NCBI GenBank assembly: GCA_035540635.1
Contig: DATLGH010000110.1
Location: forward strand, 1 to 46,156
Length of the DNA: 46,156 bases
Origin: Egibacteraceae bacterium
Lineage (GTDB): Bacteria; Actinomycetota; Nitriliruptoria; Euzebyales; Egibacteraceae
Direction: 5' to 3'
Shown here one piece after another: positions 773 through 31,974 of the stretch. The translations under genes and the position numbers were made by a program. Position 1 is the first letter of the stretch; each line of letters begins with the position of its first letter. The notes under the pieces were generated by a model. That model was given only the letters and a program-made list of their open reading frames with translations. It was not told the DNA's origin and did not search any database.

Positions 773-1996
773 TCAGGTCTTGTTCGCCCGCTGGCGGGCG
801 CGGTAGGCCTTGTAGAACAGCTTCTTGGCACTGCCGGGCTCGGACTTGTAGCGCGCCCAGCCGGAGGGCGCGCCGTCCTCGGTCCAGCGGGTGGTCATGT
901 TCTTGTCTTCCATGGTGATGGCGCGCATCCTGCGGATGGCGCCGCCCACGACCTTGGAGGCGCTGCTCGACACGAACGAGCCCGGGGAGGCCGCGTAGAT
1001 CGGGGCGAACTTGTCGGGGAAGCCCGGCATCGTGCAACCGATGCAGATGCCGCCCATGTTCATGCAGCCGCCGGTGCCGTTCACGATGCCGCGCTCGGCG
1101 ATGTTGCACTGCACGACGGGGCCCCAGCAGCCGAGCTCGACGAGGCACTCCTTGTCGCCGTACTCCTCCGCGAACACGCCTTCCTCGTAGTAGCCGGCAC
1201 GCGGGCAGTGGCGGTGGACGGTCTCGCCGAAGAGCCACGCGGGCCGTCCGAGCTCGTCGAACTCCGGCAGCGGGGCGAGGCCCTGGAGGAAGAGGATGAC
1301 CGCGGCTGCGGTCTCCATGAAGTTGTCACCAATCGGCGAGCAACCCGGAACGTTCACGACGGGCACGCCGAACGCCGAGCGGTAGTCGCGCCCGAGGAAG
1401 TCCATGACGGCCATGGAACCGGTGATGTTGCCCTCGGCGGCGGGGATGCCACCCCAGGTGGCGCAGGTGCCGATCGCCACGACGGCGGCGGCCTTCGGCG
1501 CCAGGCGCTTCATCCACTCCGCGGAGGTGATGGGCTGGCCCGTCGCCGGGTCGTCGCCGAGCCCCATGAAGAAGCCGTCGCCCGACTTCGTCTCGTCGAA
1601 CATGCTCCCCTCCCAGGTGATGACGAAGGGGGCGTCGAGCTCGCCGCGCTCGGCCATGTGCAGGTTCTCGATCCACTCCGCGCCCGACTCGACGGACACG
1701 ACCGTGTGAATGAGCTCGAGCTTCGGGAGCCCGGGGACGATGCCGTTCAGGAGGTGCTCCACCGGGGGGTTCGTGGCACCGGCCACCGCGATGGTGCACC
1801 CGTCACAGGAGCCGCCCACCATCCAGATGAGGTAGAGCTTCTCCAGCGGGCCGAGCCGCATCCGGTTCGGCGGGTCCGTGGAGGGCACCCGGCTCCGCAT
1901 CGCGATCGGTGCGAACGGGTCGTAGTCCGAGAGCTCTCGGACATCCCGACCCGTCGACGTGCCTGGATGGGGCTGAGCCCCCATGCGTTCAACCAT
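773..1996 (-). CDS. hhyS: [NiFe]-hydrogenase small subunit (group 1h/5-like, no Tat signal apparent); start codon uncertain
   Basis: The 407-aa ORF contains LIWMVGGSCDGCTIAVAGATNPP and many Cys in FeS-cluster-like spacing (GCSPIG, CWGPVVQCN, CIGCTMPGFPD). It is followed by the large subunit gene. Confidence 0.9.
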   Translation of the reverse strand: MVERMGAQPHPGTSTGRDVRELSDYDPFAPIAMRSRVPSTDPPNRMRLGPLEKLYLIWMVGGSCDGCTIAVAGATNPPVEHLLNGIVPGLPKLELIHTVVSVESGAEWIENLHMAERGELDAPFVITWEGSMFDETKSGDGFFMGLGDDPATGQPITSAEWMKRLAPKAAAVVAIGTCATWGGIPAAEGNITGSMAVMDFLGRDYRSAFGVPVVNVPGCSPIGDNFMETAAAVILFLQGLAPLPEFDELGRPAWLFGETVHRHCPRAGYYEEGVFAEEYGDKECLVELGCWGPVVQCNIAERGIVNGTGGCMNMGGICIGCTMPGFPDKFAPIYAASPGSFVSSSASKVVGGAIRRMRAITMEDKNMTTRWTEDGAPSGWARYKSEPGSAKKLFYKAYRARQRANKT

Positions 1997-3848: not shown

Positions 3849-5570
3849 ATGGCGGCTGCGGCGCCCACTCCAACCCGGCCACTGACCACGCGGGAGGGCA
3901 GCGCGCGCGCTGGCCGGTCCACGATCCTCCACGACCCCGTGACCCGCGTGGGGGGAGGGCTCGGCGTCCGGGTCGAGACGCAGGGTTCCACGATCACCGA
4001 CGCGCACGTCTCGGGGACCTCGTTCCGGGGTTACGAGCCGATCCTGCTGGGACGCGACCCCCGCGACTTCCTCCCGCTCATCTCCCGTGCGTGCGGCTGG
4101 TGCGGCAGCATCCACCAGACGACCGCGTCGGTGGCCGAGGAGATGGCGTGGGGCCTGAGGCCGCCGCCGATGGCGCTCGCGCTGCGCGGGATCGCTCAGG
4201 CTACCGAGGCGATCTGGATCCACGCCGCGCACCTCGCCGTGCGGGCGGGGCCTGACTACTCCGCTCCGGTCGTGCGGAGGACCACCCCGTGGGTGTGGGA
4301 CCTCGCGAAACGCACCGAGGCGCCCGGGGCGGCGACGCACGGCTACAAGACCATCGCCGAGCTCATGGAGGAGCTGCGCTACTTCGAGGGCAAGTACTGG
4401 TGGAACACCATCCCGGCGGGCCGCAAGGTTCTCGAGATGATCAACCTCATGTACGGCAAGTACCCCCACCCGTCGGTGCTGAGCCCCGGCGGCGTCGGCT
4501 CCACCCTCACCGTGGGCAACTTCACCTACTACTACACCCGCCTCTACCAGTCGGTGGACTACGTCAAGCAGGTCATCGCCATCTGGGACGACCTCGTCGA
4601 CTTCCTCTACGCGGCCGACCCGCGATTCGCCGAACAGGGGGAGCGCCCCGCGAGCTTCATCCACGCGGGCGCCTGGGACCACGACGCCGCGAGCGGCTAC
4701 GACGGCAGCTGGGCCGGGCTGGACAACGACGGTCGCCGGCGCCTCGCTCCGCCGGGGGTCATGCTCGACGGTCGGCTCGCGACCGGTCGGCTGAGCGAGG
4801 TGAACGCCGGCGTCGAGGAGTCGGTTGCGCACTCCTTCTACAGCGGCTGGGAGTCGTCGGGGGGCACCGACCCGAGCGGAGGCGCGCTGTCCTCGGGGCA
4901 TCCGTGGAACAAGACGACCATCGCCGCGCCGGCACCGCGCGACTTCGCCGGCGCCTACTCCTGGTGCACCGCACCGCGCTGGCAGGGCAACGTCGTCGAG
5001 AGCACGCCACTCGGCCGTCTGTGGCTCACCGCGCAGCGGACGGACTTCCCGCCGAACGACTACATCGAGCCGACCGGCACGAGTGTCCGGATCCTCGTCC
5101 CGGAGAACTTCCTTCCCGAGACCATTGTCGAGTGGCACATCCCCAAGCGCGTCAACACCCTCGAGCGCCTGCGCGCCGACGCCTACGGGGTCGCGTTCTC
5201 GGGCCTCTGCGCGGCGCTCTGCGTGCTCGACGGTTTCACGCTCATGCGCCACCGCCGCACCGACGTGTCGCACGGCTTCACCGTCCCGAAGGGCGAGACG
5301 GCCGGCGTCGGACTGTTGGACTCCGGGCGTGGCATGAACGCCCACTACCTCCGGACGGACGGCAAGCGCCGGATCAGCACGATGCAGGTCGTCGGCCCGT
5401 CCACGTGGAACGCCTCGCCGCGCGACGCCACGGGCCAGCCCGGGCCGCTCGAGGAGGCGCTCATCGGCACGCCGATCATCGAGGAACCCGCAGACGGCCG
5501 CCTGACCGGTATCGACGCCATCCGAACCATTCACGGCTTTGATCCGTGTATGCACTGCGGCACGCACTAG
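3849..5570 (+). CDS. orphan [NiFe]-hydrogenase large-subunit paralog (no adjacent small subunit, no C-terminal extension)
   Basis: L1 motif RACGWCGSIHQ and L2 motif DPCMHCGTH, the latter immediately followed by the stop codon. About 40% identity to hhyL over the N-terminal ~200 aa by eye. Start ATG at 3849 with RBS GGAAGGA. Confidence 0.8.
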   Translation: MAAAAPTPTRPLTTREGSARAGRSTILHDPVTRVGGGLGVRVETQGSTITDAHVSGTSFRGYEPILLGRDPRDFLPLISRACGWCGSIHQTTASVAEEMAWGLRPPPMALALRGIAQATEAIWIHAAHLAVRAGPDYSAPVVRRTTPWVWDLAKRTEAPGAATHGYKTIAELMEELRYFEGKYWWNTIPAGRKVLEMINLMYGKYPHPSVLSPGGVGSTLTVGNFTYYYTRLYQSVDYVKQVIAIWDDLVDFLYAADPRFAEQGERPASFIHAGAWDHDAASGYDGSWAGLDNDGRRRLAPPGVMLDGRLATGRLSEVNAGVEESVAHSFYSGWESSGGTDPSGGALSSGHPWNKTTIAAPAPRDFAGAYSWCTAPRWQGNVVESTPLGRLWLTAQRTDFPPNDYIEPTGTSVRILVPENFLPETIVEWHIPKRVNTLERLRADAYGVAFSGLCAALCVLDGFTLMRHRRTDVSHGFTVPKGETAGVGLLDSGRGMNAHYLRTDGKRRISTMQVVGPSTWNASPRDATGQPGPLEEALIGTPIIEEPADGRLTGIDAIRTIHGFDPCMHCGTH

Positions 5571-5660: not shown

Positions 5661-5939
5661 ATGAGCACCGGCTGGGTCATCGGCTTCGGGGTGGGCGCGG
5701 CGGTGGTGGTGGTCGTCGTCGTGCTGCTCCTGCTCATGATCGCCGGTATGCGCGCCGCGGCCATCCGGGCGGAGTCGATCCTGGCCGCCCTCCACGCCGC
5801 TCGGGACAACACCCAGGGACTCTGGGAGATCGAGCGCATCAACACCCTGACCACCCGCATCCTCGTCGCCGCCACCACCGCCCGGCAGGCGCTCGCCCGC
5901 CGGGCCGGGTACCGCGTAGGGGAGGTCGGTCAGCGATGA
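5661..5939 (+). CDS. small single-pass membrane protein, family C (paralog array 1)
   Basis: RBS AAGGAG precedes the start. N-terminal hydrophobic helix GAAVVVVVVVLLLLMIAG. Paralogous to 5936..6196, 9805..10077 and 10074..10361. Confidence 0.6.
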   Translation: MSTGWVIGFGVGAAVVVVVVVLLLLMIAGMRAAAIRAESILAALHAARDNTQGLWEIERINTLTTRILVAATTARQALARRAGYRVGEVGQR

Positions 5940-6196
5940 CCGACGAGACCCTGTGGTGGACCGCTCTCGGTCTCGGGGCGGTGGTCGCCGTCGTCGCGGT
6001 CGCCCTCCTTCAGGTGTTCCTCGGGTACGTCCGCCGGGTCGAACGGGGGGCGGAGGCGATCTGGGAGGCCGGCAAGCAGGTCGCGCGCAACACCTCGACG
6101 ACGTGGATGCTCGGGCAGACCTCCGAGCGCCTCGACGAGCTCGCCGCCGAGGCGGCGCGCCACGACGCGTTCCTGCGCTCGGTCAAGGGGGCATGA
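5936..6196 (+). CDS. small single-pass membrane protein, family C
   Basis: ATGA overlap with the upstream gene. Product MTDETLWWTALGLGAVVAVVAVALL... contains the shared W..LG.GAVV motif. Confidence 0.6.
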   Translation: MTDETLWWTALGLGAVVAVVAVALLQVFLGYVRRVERGAEAIWEAGKQVARNTSTTWMLGQTSERLDELAAEAARHDAFLRSVKGA

Positions 6197-6200
6197 GCCG

Positions 6201-6518
6201 ATGCGTCCCCTGCTCGTCGCCCTGACCGCCGCGGAGATCACCCTCGTCGTCGTCGTGCTCGCCGTGTACCTCCACAAGATCGCGGGATCGCTGCGGGCTA
6301 CCGCAGGGTTCCTCGGCAAGACGAACTTCGGCGTGCGCGCGATCGAGTCGCAGTGCGCCCCGATCGGGCCGGCGGTCACGAGGATCAACGCGCAGCTGGG
6401 CGTCATCTCGTCGGCGCTCGGCGGCCTCGCCGACCTCGCCGAGGGGCTTCCGACCCAGACCAACGGTCGGGACCCCAAGCACACCTCCTCCCGGAGAAGG
6501 AGAAAGAGCCGTGGCTGA
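6201..6518 (+). CDS. small single-pass membrane protein, family A (FGVRAI motif)
   Basis: TM helix followed by GKTNFGVRAIESQ..PIGPAV..INAQL. Paralogous to 9031..9273, 9542..9808 and 28117..28368. Confidence 0.6.
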   Translation: MRPLLVALTAAEITLVVVVLAVYLHKIAGSLRATAGFLGKTNFGVRAIESQCAPIGPAVTRINAQLGVISSALGGLADLAEGLPTQTNGRDPKHTSSRRRRKSRG

Positions 6519-6924
6519 ACTGCAGACCCCGAAGTCGGAGGCGCTGCGCGCCCTGTTCTGGAGGAGCGAGATCCTCCAGGTCATGTACTGGCTGCGGGGG
6601 GAGGGCCTCGGTGACGAGATCACCCCGCGGATGATGGAGCGCTTCCTCGGCGTGGGCGCGGAGGTCGGGGTCACCTACCTCAACCGGCTCGTCGAGGAGG
6701 GCTACCTCGACCGCACCGAGCGGGGGTTCACCCTGTCTCCCCGCGGTATCGAGGAGGGGGCGGCAGAGTTCGCGTCTTCGTTCGCCGAGCTCACCCGGCC
6801 CACCCACGGCGAGTGCAGCGCCGACTGCTGGTGCCACAACTCGCCGGAGGAGGCGGACGCCTGTGCCGCCGAGCGCGGCGCTCACAGCCACTCCCACGAT
6901 CACGACCACGACCACGACCACTGA
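6511..6924 (+). CDS. winged-helix protein with Cys4 plus His-rich (HSHSHDHDHDHDH) metal-binding tail
   Basis: GTG start with a strong RBS GGAGAAGGAG. The C-terminus reads HGECSADCWCHNSPEEADACAAERGAHSHSHDHDHDHDH. Confidence 0.6.
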   Translation: MAELQTPKSEALRALFWRSEILQVMYWLRGEGLGDEITPRMMERFLGVGAEVGVTYLNRLVEEGYLDRTERGFTLSPRGIEEGAAEFASSFAELTRPTHGECSADCWCHNSPEEADACAAERGAHSHSHDHDHDHDH

Positions 6925-6977: not shown

Positions 6978-7358
6978 ATGTCCACCTCACGCATAGACGA
7001 CGCGCCGGGCGGCTTGCCCCGCAACTACCTGCGGCCCTGCCTGCTCCTCCTCCTCGGTGAGGGAGCCTCGCACGGCTACGAGCTGCTCGAGCAGGTGGGC
7101 GTCCTCGGGCTCGAGAAGGCCGACCCGGGTGGTCTCTACCGCACTCTGCGGGCCATGGAGCAGGAAGAGCTCGTGCGCTCGTGGTGGGAGCACTCCGAGT
7201 CGGGTCCCGCGCGGCGGACGTACGACCTCACGGAGGAGGGGCGTGACTGGCTCCACGCCTGGGCTGGATCCCTGCGTGAGGTGCACCGGCTGCTCGGGCT
7301 CTACCTCGACCGCTACGAGGCCCTGGTCGAGGGCTCGCACTCGACCCTCACGTCATGA
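6978..7358 (+). CDS. PadR-family transcriptional regulator
   Basis: LLLLLGEGASHGYELLEQ...GGLYRTLRAMEQEELV is a typical PadR winged helix. Confidence 0.8.
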   Translation: MSTSRIDDAPGGLPRNYLRPCLLLLLGEGASHGYELLEQVGVLGLEKADPGGLYRTLRAMEQEELVRSWWEHSESGPARRTYDLTEEGRDWLHAWAGSLREVHRLLGLYLDRYEALVEGSHSTLTS

Positions 7359-8128
7359 GGATCGCGCTCGCCGGCAAGGGCGGTGCCGGCAAGACGACGA
7401 CGTCGGCGACGCTGGCACGGCTTCTCGCCCTGGGCGGGACGCCCGTCGTCGCCATCGACGCCGACAGCAACCCCAACCTCTCCTTCGCCCTCGGCGTCCC
7501 GCGGGAGGAGGCGACGCAGGCCAGGGGCCTGCCGACCTCGCTCGTCTCCCGCCGCCTCGGTGGCCCGGGCCTGACCCAGTCGCTCGACACCGCCCTGGAC
7601 CGGCACGCGATCGTCGCGCCCGACGGGGTCCGCGTCCTGCTCATGGGGATGCCCGCGCACGCGGAGGAGGGATGCCTCTGCTCGGCGCACGCGACGGTCA
7701 GCGCGGTCCTCGAGGACCTCGGAACCCGGCAGGAGGTGGTGACGATCATGGACATGGAAGCGTCACCGGAGCACCTGAGCCGGGGCACCGCCCGCCACGT
7801 CGATCAGCTGCTGCTCATCACCGAGCCCTACTACCGGTCGCTGGAGACGGCGCGCAGGATGGCGGCCCTCGCCGCGGAGCTGCCGATCTCCCGCGTGGCC
7901 GTGGTCGGCAACAAGATCCGCTCTGAGGGCGACGCCGAGGCGATCGGCGCCTTCTCGGAGCGACACGGCCTCGAGGTGGCCGGTTACGTCCCGTGGAGCG
8001 ACGCCGTGACGGAGGCCGACGCGCAGGGCGTCCCCCTCGTCGAGCGCGACCCCGACGGTCCCGCTGTCCAGGCCATCGCCGAGCTCGCTCGGGGACTCGT
8101 CGCGTACCAGTTCCAGACGGCGGGTTAG
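7355..8128 (+). CDS. CooC/MinD-family P-loop ATPase (putative Ni-insertion accessory protein), paralog 1
   Basis: Deviant Walker A GKGGAGKTTT, DADSNPNL, and CxC motif GCLCSAHA. ATGA overlap with the PadR gene. Confidence 0.85.
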   Translation: MRIALAGKGGAGKTTTSATLARLLALGGTPVVAIDADSNPNLSFALGVPREEATQARGLPTSLVSRRLGGPGLTQSLDTALDRHAIVAPDGVRVLLMGMPAHAEEGCLCSAHATVSAVLEDLGTRQEVVTIMDMEASPEHLSRGTARHVDQLLLITEPYYRSLETARRMAALAAELPISRVAVVGNKIRSEGDAEAIGAFSERHGLEVAGYVPWSDAVTEADAQGVPLVERDPDGPAVQAIAELARGLVAYQFQTAG

Positions 8129-8723: not shown

Positions 8724-8726
8724 CGT

Positions 8727-8774
8727 GGTCTTGCTCAACGATGGTCTTGCTCAACGATGGTCTTGCTCAACGGT
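8727..8774. repeat. 16-bp tandem repeat GGTCTTGCTCAACGAT x3
   Basis: Read directly from the sequence. The third copy reads ...AACGGT. Confidence 0.7.
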
Positions 8775-8806: not shown

Positions 8807-8977
8807 CTACTTCCTGGCGGACCGGAGGGCGAAGCGCTGGAGGGTCTTGCTCACGTTCTGCACCTTGTGCTTGGTGCGGAGGTGGTCAGCGACCTTGCTC
8901 AGCAGCTCGTCCTCGCTCGAGGCCTTGAAGTGGCCCTTGCAGGTTGCGCCTGCATCCGTTCAGCGGAACTCGGGCAT
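8807..8977 (-). CDS. DUF1059-like small protein with in-frame TGA at codon 6 (candidate selenocysteine; otherwise a nonsense pseudogene)
   Basis: Strong RBS AAAGGGAGGAG lies 7 nt before the ATG at 8977. Translation is MPEFR-TGA-TDAGATCKGHFKASSEDELLSKVADHLRTKHKVQNVSKTLQRFALRSARK. The TGA aligns with the Cys of the in-window paralog at 27903..28076 (MAVQLACADVGVACGAV...). Confidence 0.5.
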
Positions 8978-9030: not shown

Positions 9031-9273
9031 TCAGCCCTGCACGCCGAGGGTCTGGTCGAGCGCGACGCGGGCCTCCTCCAGGTTGGAGTAGATCTCGCCG
9101 ATGAGCGGCTCGAGCGGCTCGCCGCCCTGCGCGATCGCGCGGACACCGGCGTTGATCGTGCCGACGGTGAAGTTGACGTGGTTCAGGATGACCGCCACAC
9201 GGATGAGGTAGGCGGCGAGCACCGCGACGGTGGCGAACACGAGCACCAGGACGAACCAGCCTGCGAGTGGCAT
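9031..9273 (-). CDS. small single-pass membrane protein, family A
   Basis: Product MPLAGWFVLVLVFATVAVLAAYLIRVAVILNHVNFTVGTINAGVRAIAQG... Confidence 0.6.
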   Translation of the reverse strand: MPLAGWFVLVLVFATVAVLAAYLIRVAVILNHVNFTVGTINAGVRAIAQGGEPLEPLIGEIYSNLEEARVALDQTLGVQG

Positions 9274-9283
9274 GCGATGCTCC

Positions 9284-9529
9284 TTATCCGAGTTGCTGGA
9301 GGGCCGCGCCGTAGCTCTTGACCCCCGCGGCCACCTGTGCGGTCTGGTCGCGGGTCTCTTCGAGCAGGTCGACCCCGTCGAGGGCGGCGATGAGCAGCAC
9401 GCCGTGCTCGAGCACGTCGTCCGCGTACCGCTTGATCTCCACGATCGGTTCCATGAGGTTGTTCAGCAGGGTGATGACGACCGGGATGACGGCCAGGATG
9501 ATGATGCCGAGTACCCACAACCACAACAT
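9284..9529 (-). CDS. small single-pass membrane protein, family B (EI..YAD..LEHGV motif)
   Basis: Strong RBS GGGAGGAG. Product MLWLWVLGIIILAVIPVVITLLNNLMEPIVEIKRYADDVLEHGV... Paralogous to 28386..28634. Confidence 0.6.
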   Translation of the reverse strand: MLWLWVLGIIILAVIPVVITLLNNLMEPIVEIKRYADDVLEHGVLLIAALDGVDLLEETRDQTAQVAAGVKSYGAALQQLG

Positions 9530-9541
9530 TGTCGCTCCTCC

Positions 9542-9808
9542 CTACCGCACGGCTTGGGCGTAGCGCTGCACGTTCGACGCGATGCGGGGCAGCATCTGGT
9601 TGATCTCCCGCAGCCCCTGGTTCACGCGCTGGACGGGCGGGCCGATCGACAGCACCTGCTCCTCCACGGCGCGCACGCCGAAGGCGACGTTGGCGAGGGT
9701 AGCCGAGATCGACTTCAGCCTCGTGGTGATGACGACGAGGTAGATCGCGAGCACGAGGACGAGGAGGACCACCTCGATGAAGGTCAGGACGACGAGCAAA
9801 CCACTCAT
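9542..9808 (-). CDS. small single-pass membrane protein, family A
   Basis: Internal ATG at 9808 with ATGA overlap. Product MSGLLVVLTFIEVVLLVLVLAIYLVVITTRLKSISATLANVAFGVRAVEEQ... Confidence 0.6.
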   Translation of the reverse strand: MSGLLVVLTFIEVVLLVLVLAIYLVVITTRLKSISATLANVAFGVRAVEEQVLSIGPPVQRVNQGLREINQMLPRIASNVQRYAQAVR

Positions 9809-10077
9809 ACTTGACTCCAGAGCTGATCGTGCCGCTTGATCTCTTCCTTCAGCTTGTCCACGGTGTTGGCCGTGCCCTGCAGCTGCCAGGCCGTCGCGGT
9901 GTTCGCCGCGAGCTTCGTCGCCATCTGCCACACGTCGGCGAGACCGCGGTCGATGTCCTGGACGAACCGCAGCAGCAGGGTGAGGAGGGCGATCACGACG
10001 GCGATGACGACGGCGCCGATGCCGAGCGCCACCGACCACATCGCGATCTCCTGCGGTGCGTACGCGAGAACCCTCAT
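9805..10077 (-). CDS. small single-pass membrane protein, family C
   Basis: Product MRVLAYAPQEIAMWSVALGIGAVVIAVVIALL... ATGA overlaps with both neighbouring genes. Confidence 0.6.
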   Translation of the reverse strand: MRVLAYAPQEIAMWSVALGIGAVVIAVVIALLTLLLRFVQDIDRGLADVWQMATKLAANTATAWQLQGTANTVDKLKEEIKRHDQLWSQV

Positions 10078-10361
10078 GCCTGGGCCTCCAGTGCCTCACG
10101 GGCTTCCGTCGCGCGCTCGAGGATCGCCTTCGCGGTGGCGTTGACGGAGTCGATGTCCCACAGGGGCAGCGTCGTCTGCCGACCCTGGTCGAGGCCGACG
10201 AGGATCTCCTGCGCCTGCTTGGCGATCCGGGCCGCCCGCGACAGGATCGCCGAGACGACGATGACGACGACCCAGACGATGGCGAAACCGATTCCGAGGC
10301 CGAGCCACCACCCGAAAAGGTGCGGCTCGCCAGGGGCGTGCTCAGCTAACGTAACGAGCAT
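10074..10361 (-). CDS. small single-pass membrane protein, family C-like
   Basis: RBS AAGGAG. Product ...LFGWWLGLGIGFAIVWVVVIVVSAIL... Confidence 0.55.
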   Translation of the reverse strand: MLVTLAEHAPGEPHLFGWWLGLGIGFAIVWVVVIVVSAILSRAARIAKQAQEILVGLDQGRQTTLPLWDIDSVNATAKAILERATEAREALEAQA

Positions 10362-13468: not shown

Positions 13469-14272
13469 TCAGCCCAGGAGGGCGGCCGCCCCTGAGCGGC
13501 TCAACCGCTGGTTGGCGAGTCGCAGCGTCCGCGCGGTGTAGGTGACGAGATGGCGCAGGCGGGCGGGCGTGAGCCGTTCGCACATCCAGTCCCAGTGCAG
13601 CGACACCCAGTCGCCGGCCGCCGGCTTCGCGACGAAGGCCAGTCCGCGCTCGGCCCGCGTGGCCGTCTCCAGCCGCCGCGGCCCGAGGCTCAGCGACCGG
13701 CCGTCCCAGCGCAGGGGCCGGCTGCCCACGACGACCTGGTCCCCGCTCGCCGTCACGACCTGTCCCCAGCGGATGCGGCAGCGGTCGAGGACCTCGAGCG
13801 CCTTCTCCCCCTGGACCCCCGCCCCGAGCAGTCCGATCCACGGGTACACGCAGAACACGTGGAAGCTGTGATGGGGCACCCCACCAGCGGGAACGGCCTC
13901 GGCCAGGCGGCCCCACGCCTTGCCCGCCGGGCCCCGGAAGCGGCTCTCGAGGGACCGGCCGAACACGCTCATGTCGACCTGGTCGAGCAGCGGGCTGCCC
14001 ACCCAGTAAGCCTCTCCCACCCGGGGGTCGAGCGGGTCGTCGATCCCCGCAGCCGTGGCGATGAGCTGATAGTAGGGCCACGCGCCGGAGAAGCCCCGGG
14101 CGAGCTCGCGCAGGCCGGGGTCGACGGCTCCGGTCGCCCCGTACTCGAGAAGGGCCCGGTGGTCCGCCGGGCCGCAGTAGCCGCGGGCGTTCGGCGGGTA
14201 GGCGTACCGGGCGAACAGCAGGGCCCCGGCGTTGCCCGGTGCCGTGGATGTCGGAGCCATGGTGGGACCCAT
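13469..14272 (-). CDS. hypothetical protein (start uncertain; the ORF extends to 14332)
   Basis: ORF with a GC3 bias. No recognised motifs. Confidence 0.5.
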   Translation of the reverse strand: MGPTMAPTSTAPGNAGALLFARYAYPPNARGYCGPADHRALLEYGATGAVDPGLRELARGFSGAWPYYQLIATAAGIDDPLDPRVGEAYWVGSPLLDQVDMSVFGRSLESRFRGPAGKAWGRLAEAVPAGGVPHHSFHVFCVYPWIGLLGAGVQGEKALEVLDRCRIRWGQVVTASGDQVVVGSRPLRWDGRSLSLGPRRLETATRAERGLAFVAKPAAGDWVSLHWDWMCERLTPARLRHLVTYTARTLRLANQRLSRSGAAALLG

Positions 14273-27902: not shown

Positions 27903-28076
27903 CTACGTCGTTCTCGCTTCGTCGGCCGCGTAGTCGATGAGCGTCTGCGTGAGCACGACGCCGTGCTTCTCGCGCGCATGCGCGGCCACCTGCGCGAGCA
28001 GGTCCTCCACGGTCGCGGCTCGGTGGACGGCCCCGCAGGCCACCCCCACGTCGGCGCAGGCGAGTTGGACGGCCAT
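27903..28076 (-). CDS. DUF1059-like small protein (57 aa), Cys-containing form
   Basis: Not in the ORF track because it is under the length cut-off. RBS GGGAG precedes the start. Product is MAVQLACADVGVACGAVHRAATVEDLLAQVAAHAREKHGVVLTQTLIDYAADEARTT. Confidence 0.6.
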   Translation of the reverse strand: MAVQLACADVGVACGAVHRAATVEDLLAQVAAHAREKHGVVLTQTLIDYAADEARTT

Positions 28077-28116: not shown

Positions 28117-28368
28117 CTACGTCCCCGCGTCGACCTTCGCTGCGAAGTCCTCCAGGGCGTCGGCGACGGCGGTGAGGTTGCCGCTCACGTCGGCCAGCGC
28201 CGGTCCGGCAGGCCCCGTGCGGTGCGCGACCGCGCGCACGCCGAAGGTGACCTTGCCGAGCGTGTCGTTGACGTGGCTGAGGATGACCACGATCCAGATG
28301 AGGTAGAAGGCCAGCGCGGCGACGAGGAGGGCGACGAGGCCGAGCGTGACGATCGCCGCTGCGGACAT
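28117..28368 (-). CDS. small single-pass membrane protein, family A
   Basis: ATG at 28368. Product MSAAAIVTLGLVALLVAALAFYLIWIVVILSHVNDTLGKVTFGVRAVAHR... Confidence 0.6.
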   Translation of the reverse strand: MSAAAIVTLGLVALLVAALAFYLIWIVVILSHVNDTLGKVTFGVRAVAHRTGPAGPALADVSGNLTAVADALEDFAAKVDAGT

Positions 28369-28385
28369 CGGCCGATTCCTCTCGG

Positions 28386-28634
28386 TCAGGCGAGACGGCG
28401 GAGCGCGCTCACGTAGCGGGCCGCGTTGTCGGTGACGCGACGAGCCACGTCGCGGGTGTCGGCCAGGGCGGGCAGGGGGTCGAGGGTACCGGTCAGCCGG
28501 ACGCCGTGCTCGAGGATCTCGTCGGCGTACTGGCGGATCTCCAACGCCTGGGCGATGACCCGGTTGGCGAGGAGGACGACGAGCGGGATGACCGCGAGCA
28601 GCCCGACGGCGTTCGCGACCCACCACAGCGTCAC
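28386..28634 (-). CDS. small single-pass membrane protein, family B
   Basis: GTG at 28634 with RBS GGAGG. Product VTLWWVANAVGLLAVIPLVVLLANRVIAQALEIRQYADEILEHGV... Confidence 0.55.
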   Translation of the reverse strand: MTLWWVANAVGLLAVIPLVVLLANRVIAQALEIRQYADEILEHGVRLTGTLDPLPALADTRDVARRVTDNAARYVSALRRLA

Positions 28635-28802
28635 GCGCGACCTCCTCGTCGTCGTGCCGGTCCGCACCTCGCCTGGCTGCCCAAAGCCGGGATACCTGCC
28701 CCCGGCGGACGACCCGACTATATCATTGCGGAGTAGTCACCCACCGCGCGCTCGGGAGGTCCGGGGCAGTGCGGATGCCGCCGCTGGACGAGGAGGACGC
28801 AA

Positions 28803-29576
28803 ATGAAGCTCGGAATCGTCGGGAAGGGCGGGGTAGGCAAGACGACCGTGTCCGCCCTCATCTCGCAGGCCTACGCCGCGCGCGGCGCCCGCGTCGTTGC
28901 CATCGACACCGACTCCAACCCCAACCTCGGCATGTCGCTCGGCATGGACTGGGACGAGATGGAGGCCGTGCCGGTCATGCCCCGTGCCCTGATCGTCGGC
29001 AGCGAGGGAGACCTGACGGCCCAGGAGGTGATCGAGAAGTACGGTCGCCCCACACCGGCCGGCCCGGTCCTCCTCTCGGCCATCCGCGTCACCCAGGCGG
29101 GCTCCGGCTGCACCTGCTCCGGCCACGCGACGGTGCGCAACTTCCTCGGCGAGGTGCTCGCGGAGGAGGCCGACGTGACGCTCATCGACATGGAGGCCGG
29201 CCTCGAGCACCTGAGCCGCTCCGGCGGCACCCTCGCGTACGCCGACGTCCTGCTCGTCGTGATGGAGCCGAGCCGCAAGTCGGTCATCACCGCTGCGCGC
29301 ACCCTCGCCCTCGCCGAGGAGCTCGGCATCCCCAGGGTGTACGGCCTCGGCAACAAGGCCCGCATGCCCGAGGACGCCGAGTTCTTCGCCGAGTTGGCTG
29401 CGGAGTACAACGTCCCCCTCGCGGGGGTCATCCCCCTCGATCCCGCCGTGGCCGACGCCGACCGGGCGGGGTCCGCGGTGACCGCCACACCCCCCGAGGC
29501 GGTGCGTGCGGCGCTCGACGCCGTCATCGACCTCATCGAGGGCTCCTCAGTGAGCGACCAGGCCCCCGTGCGCTGA
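28803..29576 (+). CDS. CooC/MinD-family P-loop ATPase, paralog 2
   Basis: Walker A GKGGVGKTT, DTDSNPNL, and CxC motif GCTCSGHA. Confidence 0.85.
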   Translation: MKLGIVGKGGVGKTTVSALISQAYAARGARVVAIDTDSNPNLGMSLGMDWDEMEAVPVMPRALIVGSEGDLTAQEVIEKYGRPTPAGPVLLSAIRVTQAGSGCTCSGHATVRNFLGEVLAEEADVTLIDMEAGLEHLSRSGGTLAYADVLLVVMEPSRKSVITAARTLALAEELGIPRVYGLGNKARMPEDAEFFAELAAEYNVPLAGVIPLDPAVADADRAGSAVTATPPEAVRAALDAVIDLIEGSSVSDQAPVR

Positions 29577-30481: not shown

Positions 30482-31219
30482 CTAGGACGCGGGGAGGAGG
30501 TCCTCGGCGAGCGCCGCGAGCGCCGCCACGGCCGGCGCGTCGGGGTCGAGGTCAAGGGGCGCGATCCCCTTGCGGTCGGCCTCGACGATCACCGGGTCGT
30601 CGGGCACACCCACGACCTCCACCCCGGGCGGAAAGGCCGCACGGATCCGCTCGAGGTCGTCCTCGCCCCGGATGCGGTTGGCGAGGACCACCGTGCGCAT
30701 CGCCGCGCGCTCCCCCGCGAGCTCGGCGGCACGGGCGCCGACCTCGAGCGACTTCGACATCGCCTCGACGACGATGACGACCACGTCGACGGCGTTCTCC
30801 GCCAGGCGCGTGAGCGTGCCGATCCCCGCCTCGCAGTCCGCGATGACCACCGATGCGCCGAACTCCCCGGACCCGAGCAACTGCTCGGGTGAGAGCCCGC
30901 ATCAGGGACAGCCCGGCTCCGGGTTCTCGATACGCGAGACGACGGCGAGCCGCACGTTGTCCGGCGCGTCGGAGCCGAAGCGGTCCATGAGCTCGGCCCA
31001 GCCAGGGGCGTGCTCCTCCTCGCCTTCGGCGAGCGCCTGACGCATCGCGTCGAGCCGCTCGGTCTCCGTGTCACCGATGCCCAGCGAGATGCCGAGGTTC
31101 GGGTTGCTGTCGCAGTCGAGCGCGACCACCCCGCGGCCCTGGCGGCCGATGGTGCGCGCCAGCACGGCCGACGTCGTCGTCTTGCCAGAGCCGCCCTTGC
31201 CGACGACCGCGATCTTCAT
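30482..31219 (-). CDS. CooC/MinD-family ATPase interrupted by one in-frame TGA (30902-30904) inside its CxC metal motif (candidate selenoprotein; otherwise a nonsense pseudogene)
   Basis: The N-terminal part (31219->30905) reads MKIAVVGKGGSGKTTTSAV...ENPEPGCP, then TGA, then CGLSPEQLLGSGEFGASVVIADCEAG... (30901->30482) in the same frame. The total is 239 aa, the normal family length. The TGA lies in the motif aligned to GCLCS and GCTCS of the paralogs. Confidence 0.5.
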
Positions 31220-31974
31220 GCGCCTGCCTCCTCAGCACGGAGCCGTTCCACCAGCAAGTCTATCGCCTTGACCGCCGGTGAGTCCGGGGCCTCCTCGATC
31301 GGGGGACGGCCTTTCCGGTCCGCTTCGGCGAGCTCCTCGTCGAGCGGCACGGCACCGACGACCTCAAGGCCCGTGCGGTCCTGCACCCGCTCGACGTCAC
31401 CGTCCTCGCAGACCTTGTTCACGACCGCCACGACCCGCGGCGCGTCCTCGGCCAGCGCGAGGCGCGCCAGGCGCTTCGCGCTGAGGATCGACTTCGCCAT
31501 CGGCTCCACCACCACGAGGATGGTGCGGGCGTAGCGACCCCAGCCGAGAAACGGCTGGCGGGTGCCCCCGGGGAGGTCGCCGACGATGTTCCACTTGTCG
31601 TCGGGCAGCTGGGCGGTGATCTGGCGGAACGCGAACTGCGAGCGAATGAGCCCGCGCCCGGAGTCGCGGATCTTGCCGAACTGCAGGACGCGCACACCGT
31701 CGGGCCCGCGCACGGCGTAGCGCTCGACGGCGTCGGCGGCCGTGAGCTCCCCGGCCAGCACGTACCGGGGGCCGGCCTCCGCCGGGTTCTCGACCACCGC
31801 CTCGTCGGGGATCCCGGCGTCGGTGGTCTCGACGCCGAGCGAGTAGGCCAGGCCGGGAAGCGGGTCGGAGTCGACGACGAGCACCGGCTCCCCACGTCGG
31901 GCGAGGAGGCGGGCGAACGTCCCCGCGATCGCGGACTTGCCGGCTCCGCCCTTGCCTACGAATGCAACGCGCAT
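31216..31974 (-). CDS. CooC/MinD-family P-loop ATPase, paralog 3 (no CxC motif)
   Basis: Walker A GKGGAGKS and DSDPLPGL. ATGA overlap with the downstream paralog. Confidence 0.8.
   Translation of the reverse strand: MRVAFVGKGGAGKSAIAGTFARLLARRGEPVLVVDSDPLPGLAYSLGVETTDAGIPDEAVVENPAEAGPRYVLAGELTAADAVERYAVRGPDGVRVLQFGKIRDSGRGLIRSQFAFRQITAQLPDDKWNIVGDLPGGTRQPFLGWGRYARTILVVVEPMAKSILSAKRLARLALAEDAPRVVAVVNKVCEDGDVERVQDRTGLEVVGAVPLDEELAEADRKGRPPIEEAPDSPAVKAIDLLVERLRAEEAGA

Follow-up and report, generated by a model that had tools for sequence, protein, structure and literature searches.

The DNA analysed here, a stretch of 46,156 nt from an Egibacteraceae metagenome-assembled genome (MAG; Actinomycetota) that is called the window below, is a [NiFe]-hydrogenase maturation locus. 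One of its small genes (8977..8807, minus strand), a member of the family DUF1059 (PF06348), has 56 codons and presents an in-frame TGA as codon 6. The same TGA, or a Cys codon in its place, is found in the relatives of this gene, and on this comparative evidence it is very likely a genuine selenoprotein gene, in which the TGA would stand for selenocysteine (Sec). The reading that we consider probable as a whole is that of a Sec-containing DUF1059 hydrogenase-accessory protein whose UGA would be recoded through a hairpin in the 3' untranslated region (UTR), here named H, which would be docked beside the UGA by a long-range helix, A/A'.

The DUF1059 gene and its product

Positions are given in window coordinates, and the gene is read on the minus strand; the initial annotation had placed it correctly at 8807-8977, without a strand. 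The strong ribosome-binding site (RBS) and ATG described there are both present. The Shine-Dalgarno sequence GGGAGGAG (8993-8986) lies 8 nt 5' of the ATG (8977-8975), which is followed by four sense codons and by the TGA (8962-8960), only 15 nt from the start codon; beyond the TGA, 50 sense codons lead to a TAG stop (8809-8807). The RBS and the start codon are kept in the orthologous loci L001 and L005, while the remaining intergenic region diverges. The conceptual translation is MPEFR*TDAGATCKGHFKASSEDELLSKVADHLRTKHKVQNVSKTLQRFALRSARK*, that is, MPEFR-U-TDAGATCKGHF...SARK with the predicted Sec written as U.

When U is read as C, the window protein matches the Pfam profile of DUF1059 with 47.9 bits (E=1.6e-12), residues 1-44 falling on profile positions 1-44, against a gathering cut-off of 21.1 bits; the family membership, first proposed from the letters of the sequence, is therefore borne out by the hidden Markov model. 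With the first six residues removed, the remainder scores 36.1 bits. Since the score rises to 47.9 bits with the N-terminus, the domain takes in the five residues before the TGA as well as the Cys position. The G+C content at third codon positions (GC3) of the part after the TGA is 0.92, the level of real genes in the window, and there is no ATG, GTG or TTG within 32 codons 3' of the TGA.

The family has four invariant residues, C7, C14, H33 and H38 in the alignment of Cys forms, which correspond to U6, C13, H32 and H37 in the window protein. The TGA thus stands at the first of the four, opposite the first invariant Cys, as had been noticed before. An AlphaFold2 model of the Cys form P0023 has a predicted local distance difference test score of 87.8 and a beta-alpha-beta-alpha-alpha fold; structure comparison of the DUF1059 protein returned no solved relative. 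The product is probably a small metal-binding protein in which the first metal-ligand Cys is replaced by Sec, and, to judge from the neighbouring genes, it may carry a metal (Ni or Fe) or act as a redox helper in the maturation or protection of hydrogenase.

TGA is the ordinary stop codon of 32 of the 52 window genes, therefore the TGA of the DUF1059 gene would represent a site-specific recoding and not a change of the code; a genome-wide reassignment of UGA is ruled out by the same count.

Conservation of the TGA codon and interchange with Cys

The same in-frame TGA occurs in 11 independent loci (window, L001, L005, L006, L007/L008, L009, L010b, L012, L013/L014, L015, and L016), from hosts with 60-73% G+C. 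For the ten further loci it was read from the DNA, because gene callers truncate the proteins. L001 has MPEFR-TGA-VDAGATCSGHF and L005 has MPEFR-TGA-TDAGATCKGHF, with CCA and CGG 5' of the TGA where the window has CCC and CGC. The other loci read (V)AYQFR-TGA-VDAGATC (L006); MAYEFR-TGA-VDAGAHC (L007/L008, an NCBI Actinomycetota MAG); (V)PEFK-TGA-VDAGANC (L009); MPEVR-TGA-VDAGATC (L010b); (V)PEVR-TGA-SDMGVFTC (L012); (V)PEFR-TGA-VDAGANC (L013/L014); MAYEFR-TGA-VDAGATC (L015); and MPDFR-TGA-VDAGATC (L016, from a 60% G+C organism). All TGA loci present an RBS, an in-frame start and the conserved (A)Y/PEF(R/K) peptide, and the five or six codons before the TGA differ mostly synonymously (CCC/CCA/CCG, GAG/GAA, TTC/TTT, CGC/CGG/CGT/AGG).

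The closest relatives in a library of 1.8 billion proteins include the Cys forms MPELRCVDAGAACSG, MPSFACTDAGATCKS, MALEFRCSEAGAACG, MAYEFRCTDAGATCRG, and MPEFRCVDAGAHCNA. Cys stands at the TGA position in P0003-5, P0008, P0010-12, P0014, P0023, P0037, and P0046-48, and also in a second DUF1059 gene of the window and in the tandem partner of L010b. This window paralog (27903-28076, minus strand; MAVQLAC-ADVGVACG...) matches the Pfam profile with 43.5 bits, and one of its Cys residues aligns with the TGA. A tandem DUF1059 pair in L010 consists of a Cys form (977-1144) followed by a Sec form (1210-1316). Such repeated interchange of Cys and UGA in one family is a signature of Sec. The pairing of a Sec form and a Cys paralog put forward in the initial annotation is thus supported by the 11 TGA loci, by the synonymous N-terminal changes and by the Cys relatives, tandem partner included. 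Its question of whether TGA forms exist elsewhere is answered by ten independent assemblies that keep the TGA, and other relatives keep Cys. The possibilities it had raised of a decaying locus or of another start codon find no support, for the TGA is conserved together with the coding sequence on both sides and no start follows for 32 codons.

A profile search gave at least 25 public protein clusters whose first residue is precisely the one that follows the TGA (M/V-DAGA...). The clusters in question (P0001, P0002, P0006, P0007, P0024-P0036, and P0038-P0045) are annotated as DUF1059 or small metal-binding proteins, and they are systematic truncations by gene callers, which reveal many more TGA forms. 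Four further DUF1059 clusters, P0009 and P0049-P0051, start at an internal Met. Other scans added little: a scan of genome contigs for relatives returned only one distant archaeal DUF1059, a metagenome scan with two N-terminal patterns only returned one locus, and a pattern scan of viral contigs had 0 matches.

The largest Sec-form subfamily (VDAGANCNGHF...IMNLVAKLAK; L013 7008-8150, also L014) is found directly downstream of msrB-msrA and outside a hydrogenase cluster, a neighbourhood that hints at a redox or oxidative-stress role for part of the DUF1059 family.

Hairpin H in the 3' untranslated region

After the stop codon of the window gene, the mRNA presents hairpin H (8792-8770, minus strand), ACGGUCCCAG-GUC-CUGGGACCGU, which can also be drawn with stem CCCA/UGGG and loop GGUCC (-17.4 kcal/mol). 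H is a candidate SelB-binding Sec insertion sequence (SECIS). All ten DUF1059 Sec forms have a G+C-rich hairpin of this kind 10-44 nt after the stop codon, and its apical loop starts with G-U or G-G-U in every one except L007. The hairpins are GCGGCCCCAG-GUC-CUGGGGUCGC in L001; GGCCCCAG-GUU-CUGGGGCC in L005; CCCCG-GUCG-CGGGG in L006; CCCGUCCCA-GGUC-UGGGACGGG in L012; GUCCCC-GGUC-GGGGAC in L013; GCCCCA-GGUCU-UGGGGC in L015; and GCCCUCCG-GUU-CGGAGGGC in L016. L009 has a weaker stem, GUUCCU-GGUCG-AGGGAC, and L007 a deviant loop, GCGGGCCC-CGUGCA-GGGCCCGU. The loops across the Sec forms are thus GUC/GGUCC, GUU, GGUC, GUCG, GGUCU, GGUUC, and GGUCG.

[quoted passage not shown] The loop, stem and stability of H agree with this model, with stems of 5-11 bp and energies of -8.9 to -19.1 kcal/mol; the exceptions are L009 (-6.2 kcal/mol) and the CGUGCA loop of L007. 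Its spacing does not agree, the linear distance from UGA to H being 166-172 nt, and 200 nt in L007.

Automatic detection of hairpins with a G[G/U] loop found H in nine of the ten Sec forms, 11-42 nt after the stop, and no such hairpin elsewhere in the mRNA. In the fetched DNA the background of these hairpins is about 1 per kb per strand, which corresponds to a chance of about 5% in a 45-nt window. None of the four Cys forms with available DNA (window paralog, L010a, L011, and L017) presents an H-type 3' hairpin; the window paralog has none because the next gene begins 12 nt after it.

The stem of H covaries: four of eight pairs changed on both sides, 93.8% of the cells are paired, and none of 500 shuffles reached the score. 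When nine full mRNAs were folded together with RNAalifold, H was the only helix with compensatory changes (five compensatory pairs). A covariance model built from six H hairpins and searched against 130 kb on both strands scored the window hairpin at 30.6 bits and recovered three held-out hairpins, those of L012, L006, and L013. Its only other comparable match, L012:115-136, GGGCCCCC-GGUC-GGGGGCCC, lies 6 nt beyond the stop codon of a further DUF1059 gene that is truncated at its 5' end, and every match with more than 19 bits is in the 3' UTR of a DUF1059 gene. A comparison with Rfam gave no family match at the gathering level for H, and only noise at the E-value threshold. H was also considered as a dispersed repeat; this was rejected, as the window holds one exact copy and the model matches are confined to DUF1059 3' UTRs. 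From these sequence comparisons, H as a conserved structured RNA appears well established. That it is the SECIS of the window DUF1059 gene is a further step, towards which we lean on balance.

L012 has two DUF1059 genes (2-106 and 268-441), each followed 3' by a hairpin with a GGUC loop, the first gene being cut at its 5' end.

Downstream of H, between convergent genes, the fold has a second hairpin (8723-8692, minus strand), GAGAAGCCCCCCGC-CGAU-GCGGGGGGCUUCUC, which is likely a transcription terminator. Its counterpart is present 3' of H in L001, L005, and L012, and most loci have such a terminator-like hairpin; a terminator and promoter scan returned nothing. The stretch between H and this hairpin holds 2.9 perfect tandem copies of a 16-nt unit (TGGTCTTGCTCAACGA, plus strand; window 8726-8772). 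The end of this repeat overlaps the 3' arm of H, and the repeat is absent from the orthologous L001 and L005.

The hairpin beside the UGA

A hairpin close to the TGA, UGCAGG-CGCAA-CCUGCA, had been reported in the initial annotation, beginning 6 nt after the UGA, and it exists as described (8954-8938, minus strand; -7.9 kcal/mol). It is unlikely to be the functional SECIS. Its spacing from UGA to apical loop is 11 nt, against 16-37 nt in the published model; in L005 it is broken by two mismatches with no compensation, and RNAalifold found zero compensatory changes in it. The bases of it that are conserved are those of the Ala-Gly...Cys codons. The local hairpin was therefore rejected as the main SECIS candidate, and it is probably a competing or incidental structure. 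A scan for a canonical bSECIS 16-37 nt after the UGA passed none of the ten DUF1059 Sec forms; the same scan passed a hairpin in a second TGA gene of the window, which is described below.

The predicted long-range helix A/A'

Strand A, CGCAACCUG (8948-8940, minus strand), covers codons Gly10-Ala11-Thr12-Cys13 and starts about 10-11 nt after the UGA. Strand A', CAGGUUGCG (8801-8793, minus strand), lies in the 3' UTR directly 5' of H and is a perfect 9-nt complement of A. The segment GGCGCAACCUGCA of codons 10-13 is invariant in the window, L001, and L005, synonymous sites included. A' is kept as AGGUUGCGC in L001 and L005, where (C)AGGUUGCG(C) stands directly 5' of H though the 3' UTR is otherwise diverged. 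Compared with random genomic 11-mers, the 9-nt complement has an empirical p of about 0.001 in each of the window, L001, and L005, and the helix is present in the whole-mRNA MFE fold of all three.

Complements of 6 nt with other sequences join the same or adjacent codons in L013 (GCCAAC/GUUGGC), L016 (GCUACA/UGUAGC), and L006 (GCCGGA/UCCGGC); L015 has the pairing GCCGG.../...CCGGC plus ACCU/AGGU, and L009 has GGCG..CUGUA/UACAG..CGCC. RNAalifold did not recover A/A', because MAFFT leaves the 3' UTRs out of register, and the column-based covariation test was replaced for this helix by an alignment-free complementarity test. By that test the best partner in the whole mRNA of the 16 nt 5' of H is the segment after the UGA in eight of ten sequences, with a Fisher combined p of 0.0044 over eight lineages. 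If A/A' forms, the virtual distance from UGA to loop would be about 19-21 nt in the window, L005, L013, and L016. The complementarity seems well supported in the clade of the window and only suggestive elsewhere, and whether the helix would be functionally required is, in our judgement, an even question.

A second TGA gene, encoding a CooC-like ATPase

The window was scanned systematically for in-frame TGAs flanked by coding-like sequence, and the scan recovered a gene for a CooC-like P-loop ATPase (30482-31219, minus strand) with a TGA at 30904-30902. The gene reads ...EPGCP-TGA-CGLSPEQ... (G-C-P-U-C-G), and Cys is invariant at this position, GCP-C-CG being found in 13 of 13 homologs with 60-73% identity. 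A hairpin (30890-30871), ACCCGAGC-AGUU-GCUCGGGU, begins 11-12 nt 3' of the UGA and passes all published bSECIS criteria, with 19 nt from UGA to loop, a stem of 8 bp, the loop AGUU and -14.5 kcal/mol. This spacing may be compared with the virtual distance given above for the docked H. The CooC case to which the initial annotation had appealed is supported. The ATPase is probably a second selenoprotein, apparently also unreported, and its UGA and SECIS would constitute the best available evidence that the source organism decodes Sec.

Four CooC/ParA-like paralogs are encoded in the 46-kb window, at 7355-8128 (plus), 28803-29576 (plus), 30482-31219 (minus), and 31216-31974 (minus). Two have G-C-x-C, one has G-C-P-U-C, and the one at 31216-31974 has no Cys motif (GRGLIRS). 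Another CooC-like gene, in L017 (1-354, minus strand), has a TGA at the first Cys of a CxC motif (GKG-U-MCSSYAT), with the contig end 21 nt on; the cluster around it includes HypC, HycI, small transmembrane (TM) protein genes and a Cys-form DUF1059 gene.

Proposed mechanism and alternative explanations

We propose that the UGA at codon 6 would be recoded by the SelB/tRNA-Sec pathway. SelB with Sec-tRNA(Sec) would bind the GGUC loop of H, about 170 nt from the UGA. In vivo, the A/A' helix would hold H at the mRNA entrance while the UGA occupies the A site, with H stacked at the place in which a canonical SECIS begins; once Sec has been inserted, the ribosome would melt A/A' and translate the remaining 50 codons. 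A reason for this arrangement may be that the codons after the UGA encode a constrained ligand loop (DAGAxC.G.F), which would leave no freedom for a GGUC hairpin.

A similar design is said to have been engineered by Su, Li and Gladyshev in 2005, who reportedly placed a SECIS in a 3' UTR in Escherichia coli with flanking sequence complementary to the region just after the UGA. The window gene shares with it the bacterial-type hairpin in the 3' UTR and the complement that would bring the hairpin beside the UGA. It differs in that the engineered element is artificial, whereas the putative one described here is natural, conserved across lineages and attached to a very short open reading frame. In addition, a SECIS grafted onto helix h16 of 16S rRNA supports Sec insertion, therefore spatial proximity, not linear position, counts (PMC10945757).

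Several points weigh against this interpretation. None of selA, selB, selC, and selD was found by tRNA and Rfam scans of the window and the fetched loci, the remainder of the MAG being outside the search, and the tRNA scans of the same DNA returned nothing at all. The L007 hairpin, 42-44 nt past the stop, is deviant in its loop (CGUGCA) and escapes the covariance model; in L007 and L009, H was defined after the folds had been seen. Controls from Cys forms with DNA number four only. A G+C-rich hairpin after a stop codon could also serve mRNA stability or termination. The engineered distal design is reportedly inefficient in E. coli. Helix A/A' is marginal in L006, L013, L015, and L016 (6 nt, p 0.06-0.14), and by a strict criterion it is absent from L007, L009, and L012, which have only 4-nt perfect matches and imperfect helices. 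The segment after the UGA is sticky, being the best site for 24% of random genomic 16-mers, and the unconstrained RNAduplex energies are not significant against shuffles and unexceptional for G+C-rich RNA. Finally, a weak local hairpin immediately 3' of the UGA persists in the RNAalifold result, and the bSECIS scan took uninterrupted stems only, so that an irregular local SECIS could escape it.

In the explanation that comes closest to ours, Sec is inserted by way of a local, non-canonical SECIS right after the UGA, and H serves to stabilise the mRNA or to terminate transcription. The SECIS elements known from natural bacterial genes all adjoin the UGA. According to a 2026 review, some bacterial ones do not fit the model (PMC13188914). 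Local hairpins can be drawn in the window, L001, L006 (GGAGCGA-CCUG-UCGCUUC), and L007 (GGUGCCC-ACUGCAGC-GGGCGCU), and the weak RNAalifold consensus has the form GC.GG/CC.GC. These hairpins, however, vary in position and loop among orthologs, lack a G[G/U] loop and fail the spacing rule. They are broken in L013 and L009 as well as in L005, and neither the zero compensatory changes nor the conserved bases, which the Ala-Gly...Cys codons explain, speak for an RNA element. A local SECIS would also leave unexplained why the GGUC-type loop is kept while the stem of H covaries and why H is absent from the Cys forms, and we regard it as unlikely.

A Sec pathway might also not be involved at all. UGA is leaky in many bacteria, and no Sec machinery was found in the window or the fetched loci, so the codon could be read through at a low level by a near-cognate tRNA for Trp or Cys, or the gene could be expressed conditionally. 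This seems improbable, since in two unrelated proteins encoded in the same window the UGA takes precisely the place of a metal-ligand Cys, Cys and UGA interchange repeatedly, the UGA of the CooC-like gene has a textbook SECIS, and H resembles a SelB-binding loop. Very little speaks for MPEFR as a 5-codon leader, with re-initiation after the UGA giving a product of 50 residues. At 8 of 11 loci the TGA is directly followed by GTG, which accounts for the proteins predicted by gene callers, yet in the window, L005, and L012 the following codon is ACG, ACU or UCG, with no start for 32 codons. The RBS is placed for the upstream start, the supposed leader shows homology both with the Pfam profile and with the N-termini of Cys forms (MPEFRC, MAYEFRC), and the re-initiated product would lack one invariant ligand. 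Slighter still is the chance of a pseudogene or sequencing error, a TGC turned into TGA in a decaying paralog; the Cys-form paralog in the window would make such a loss tolerable, but the TGA is present in eleven independent assemblies, purifying selection acts on the frame, the RBS and the protein to either side of it, and GC3 is that of a working gene. The comparative data thus reject a pseudogene, a sequencing error and a leader with re-initiation.

The hydrogenase locus

The hydrogenase small subunit is encoded at 773-1984 (minus strand) and the large subunit at 3849-5570 (plus strand). The latter ends in DPCMHCGTH, the Cys type, by which a [NiFeSe] hydrogenase is ruled out. Further genes encode a HycI-type protease, a tetratricopeptide repeat (TPR) protein, a BirA-like protein, the four CooC/ParA-like ATPases and many single-TM proteins of 80-105 aa; HypC/D/E/F-like open reading frames were identified by their N-terminal motifs only.

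Five small single-TM genes (80-95 aa) in the same orientation lie upstream of the DUF1059 Sec form (9031-10361, minus strand), which ends the cassette, and this arrangement is syntenic in L001 and in L005, a metagenome contig. The Cys-form paralog belongs to a cassette of the two-TM type. Both DUF1059 genes therefore stand at the end of a cassette of small single-TM protein genes, as had been pointed out from the sequence.

Clusters of group 1m hydrogenases typically include a CooC-type ATPase, a TPR protein, a BirA homolog, a DUF1059 protein and two small TM proteins, and those of group 1l include five small TM proteins, HylTM1-5 (Ray et al. 2022, PMC9561532). The cassette of the Cys form is thus of the group 1m kind, and the TGA form ends the cassette with five TM genes. 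The window shares with these high-affinity [NiFe]-hydrogenase clusters the CooC-type ATPase, the TPR protein, the BirA homolog, a HybD/HycI protease and the two or five TM proteins followed by DUF1059. It differs from them in that DUF1059 is annotated there as the Cys type, with no mention of a UGA or Sec form (PMC9561532), and some of the present Sec forms stand outside hydrogenase clusters, as in L013, where the gene adjoins msrB-msrA.

Ten paralogous single-TM proteins of 80-105 aa are encoded in the window, at 5661-6518 (plus), 9031-10361 (minus), and 28117-28667 (minus). They match no Pfam family, several share the motif (N/A)FGVRA(I/V)...Q...(I/G)P, and they are probably the equivalents of the HylTM proteins in group 1l/1m clusters. 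A protein of 137 aa with a Cys-rich HGECSADCWCH motif and a C-terminal HSHSHDHDHDHDH tail adjoins a PadR-family regulator and the CooC-like ATPase gene at 7355-8128 (window 6511-6924 and 6978-7358, plus strand); the arrangement is kept in L005 and may represent a metal-sensing regulator. A DUF6390 protein (E=8e-96; 13469-14272, minus strand), of an uncharacterised family, is encoded in the maturation region directly upstream of the hypC-like gene.

Relation to known selenoproteins and SECIS elements

The 2026 catalogue of prokaryotic selenoproteins (PMC13188914) does not list DUF1059/PF06348, and no NCBIfam model matches. DUF1059 was not found in the searchable selenoprotein literature either, and a search for literature on Egibacter or Nitriliruptor with selenocysteine returned none. 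The gene agrees with catalogued bacterial selenoproteins that have Cys homologs, such as FdhA, MbdU, and CobW-related proteins, in the UGA opposite a conserved Cys, in the interchange of Sec and Cys and in the likely role of the residue as a metal ligand; it is unlike them in having the UGA so near the start and no canonical SECIS after it (PMC13188914). As in [NiFeSe] hydrogenases, a ligand that serves the metabolism of nickel and hydrogen would have selenium in the place of sulfur, but here the large subunit is of the Cys type and the predicted selenium lies in accessory proteins, DUF1059 and the CooC-like ATPase.

H resembles the minimal SECIS of E. coli fdhF, GGUUGCAGGUCUGCACC, in its short stem and apical GGUC (GCA-GGUC-UGC, compared with CCA-GGUC-UGG in L012 and CCC-GGUC-GGG in L013). 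Unlike the fdhF element, it has no bulged U, its stems are longer and richer in G+C, and it lies about 170 nt from the UGA instead of 11 nt. With the 3'-UTR SECIS elements of archaea and eukaryotes it would share a recoding signal outside the open reading frame, which frees the coding sequence from structural constraint. Those elements, on the other hand, have a GAA_A bulge or a kink-turn, and eukaryotes use a separate SECIS-binding protein, whereas H has the look of the SelB-type hairpins of bacteria.

In natural bacterial genes the SECIS is described as following the UGA immediately downstream (PMC13188914), and for such genes no description was found of a SECIS that lies distally in the 3' UTR and is docked through base pairing. 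Selenoproteins that bind metals, and pairs of Sec and Cys forms, are already known; what would be new here are the distal, docked SECIS and the membership of DUF1059 among selenoproteins. We therefore put forward, tentatively and at slightly less than an even chance, that DUF1059 is a new, widespread selenoprotein family with the first natural bacterial mRNA, to our knowledge, whose SECIS does not adjoin the UGA, and that together with the Sec-containing CooC-like ATPase it may tie selenium to high-affinity aerobic [NiFe]-hydrogenases, by way of their maturation or protection.

If H is the SECIS, it would be a natural exception to the rule that the element directly follows the UGA, would bear on how the 3'-UTR SECIS of archaea and eukaryotes could have evolved, and would offer a natural template for the expression of selenoproteins in bacteria with the coding sequence unaltered. 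SECIS-based finders limited to 16-37 nt after the UGA would miss the DUF1059 family. DUF1059 proteins, and probably the CooC-like ATPases as well, would be unreported selenoprotein families in aerobic Actinomycetota, and their location in clusters of hydrogenases that oxidise atmospheric H2 suggests a selenium-dependent handling of metals in these clusters.

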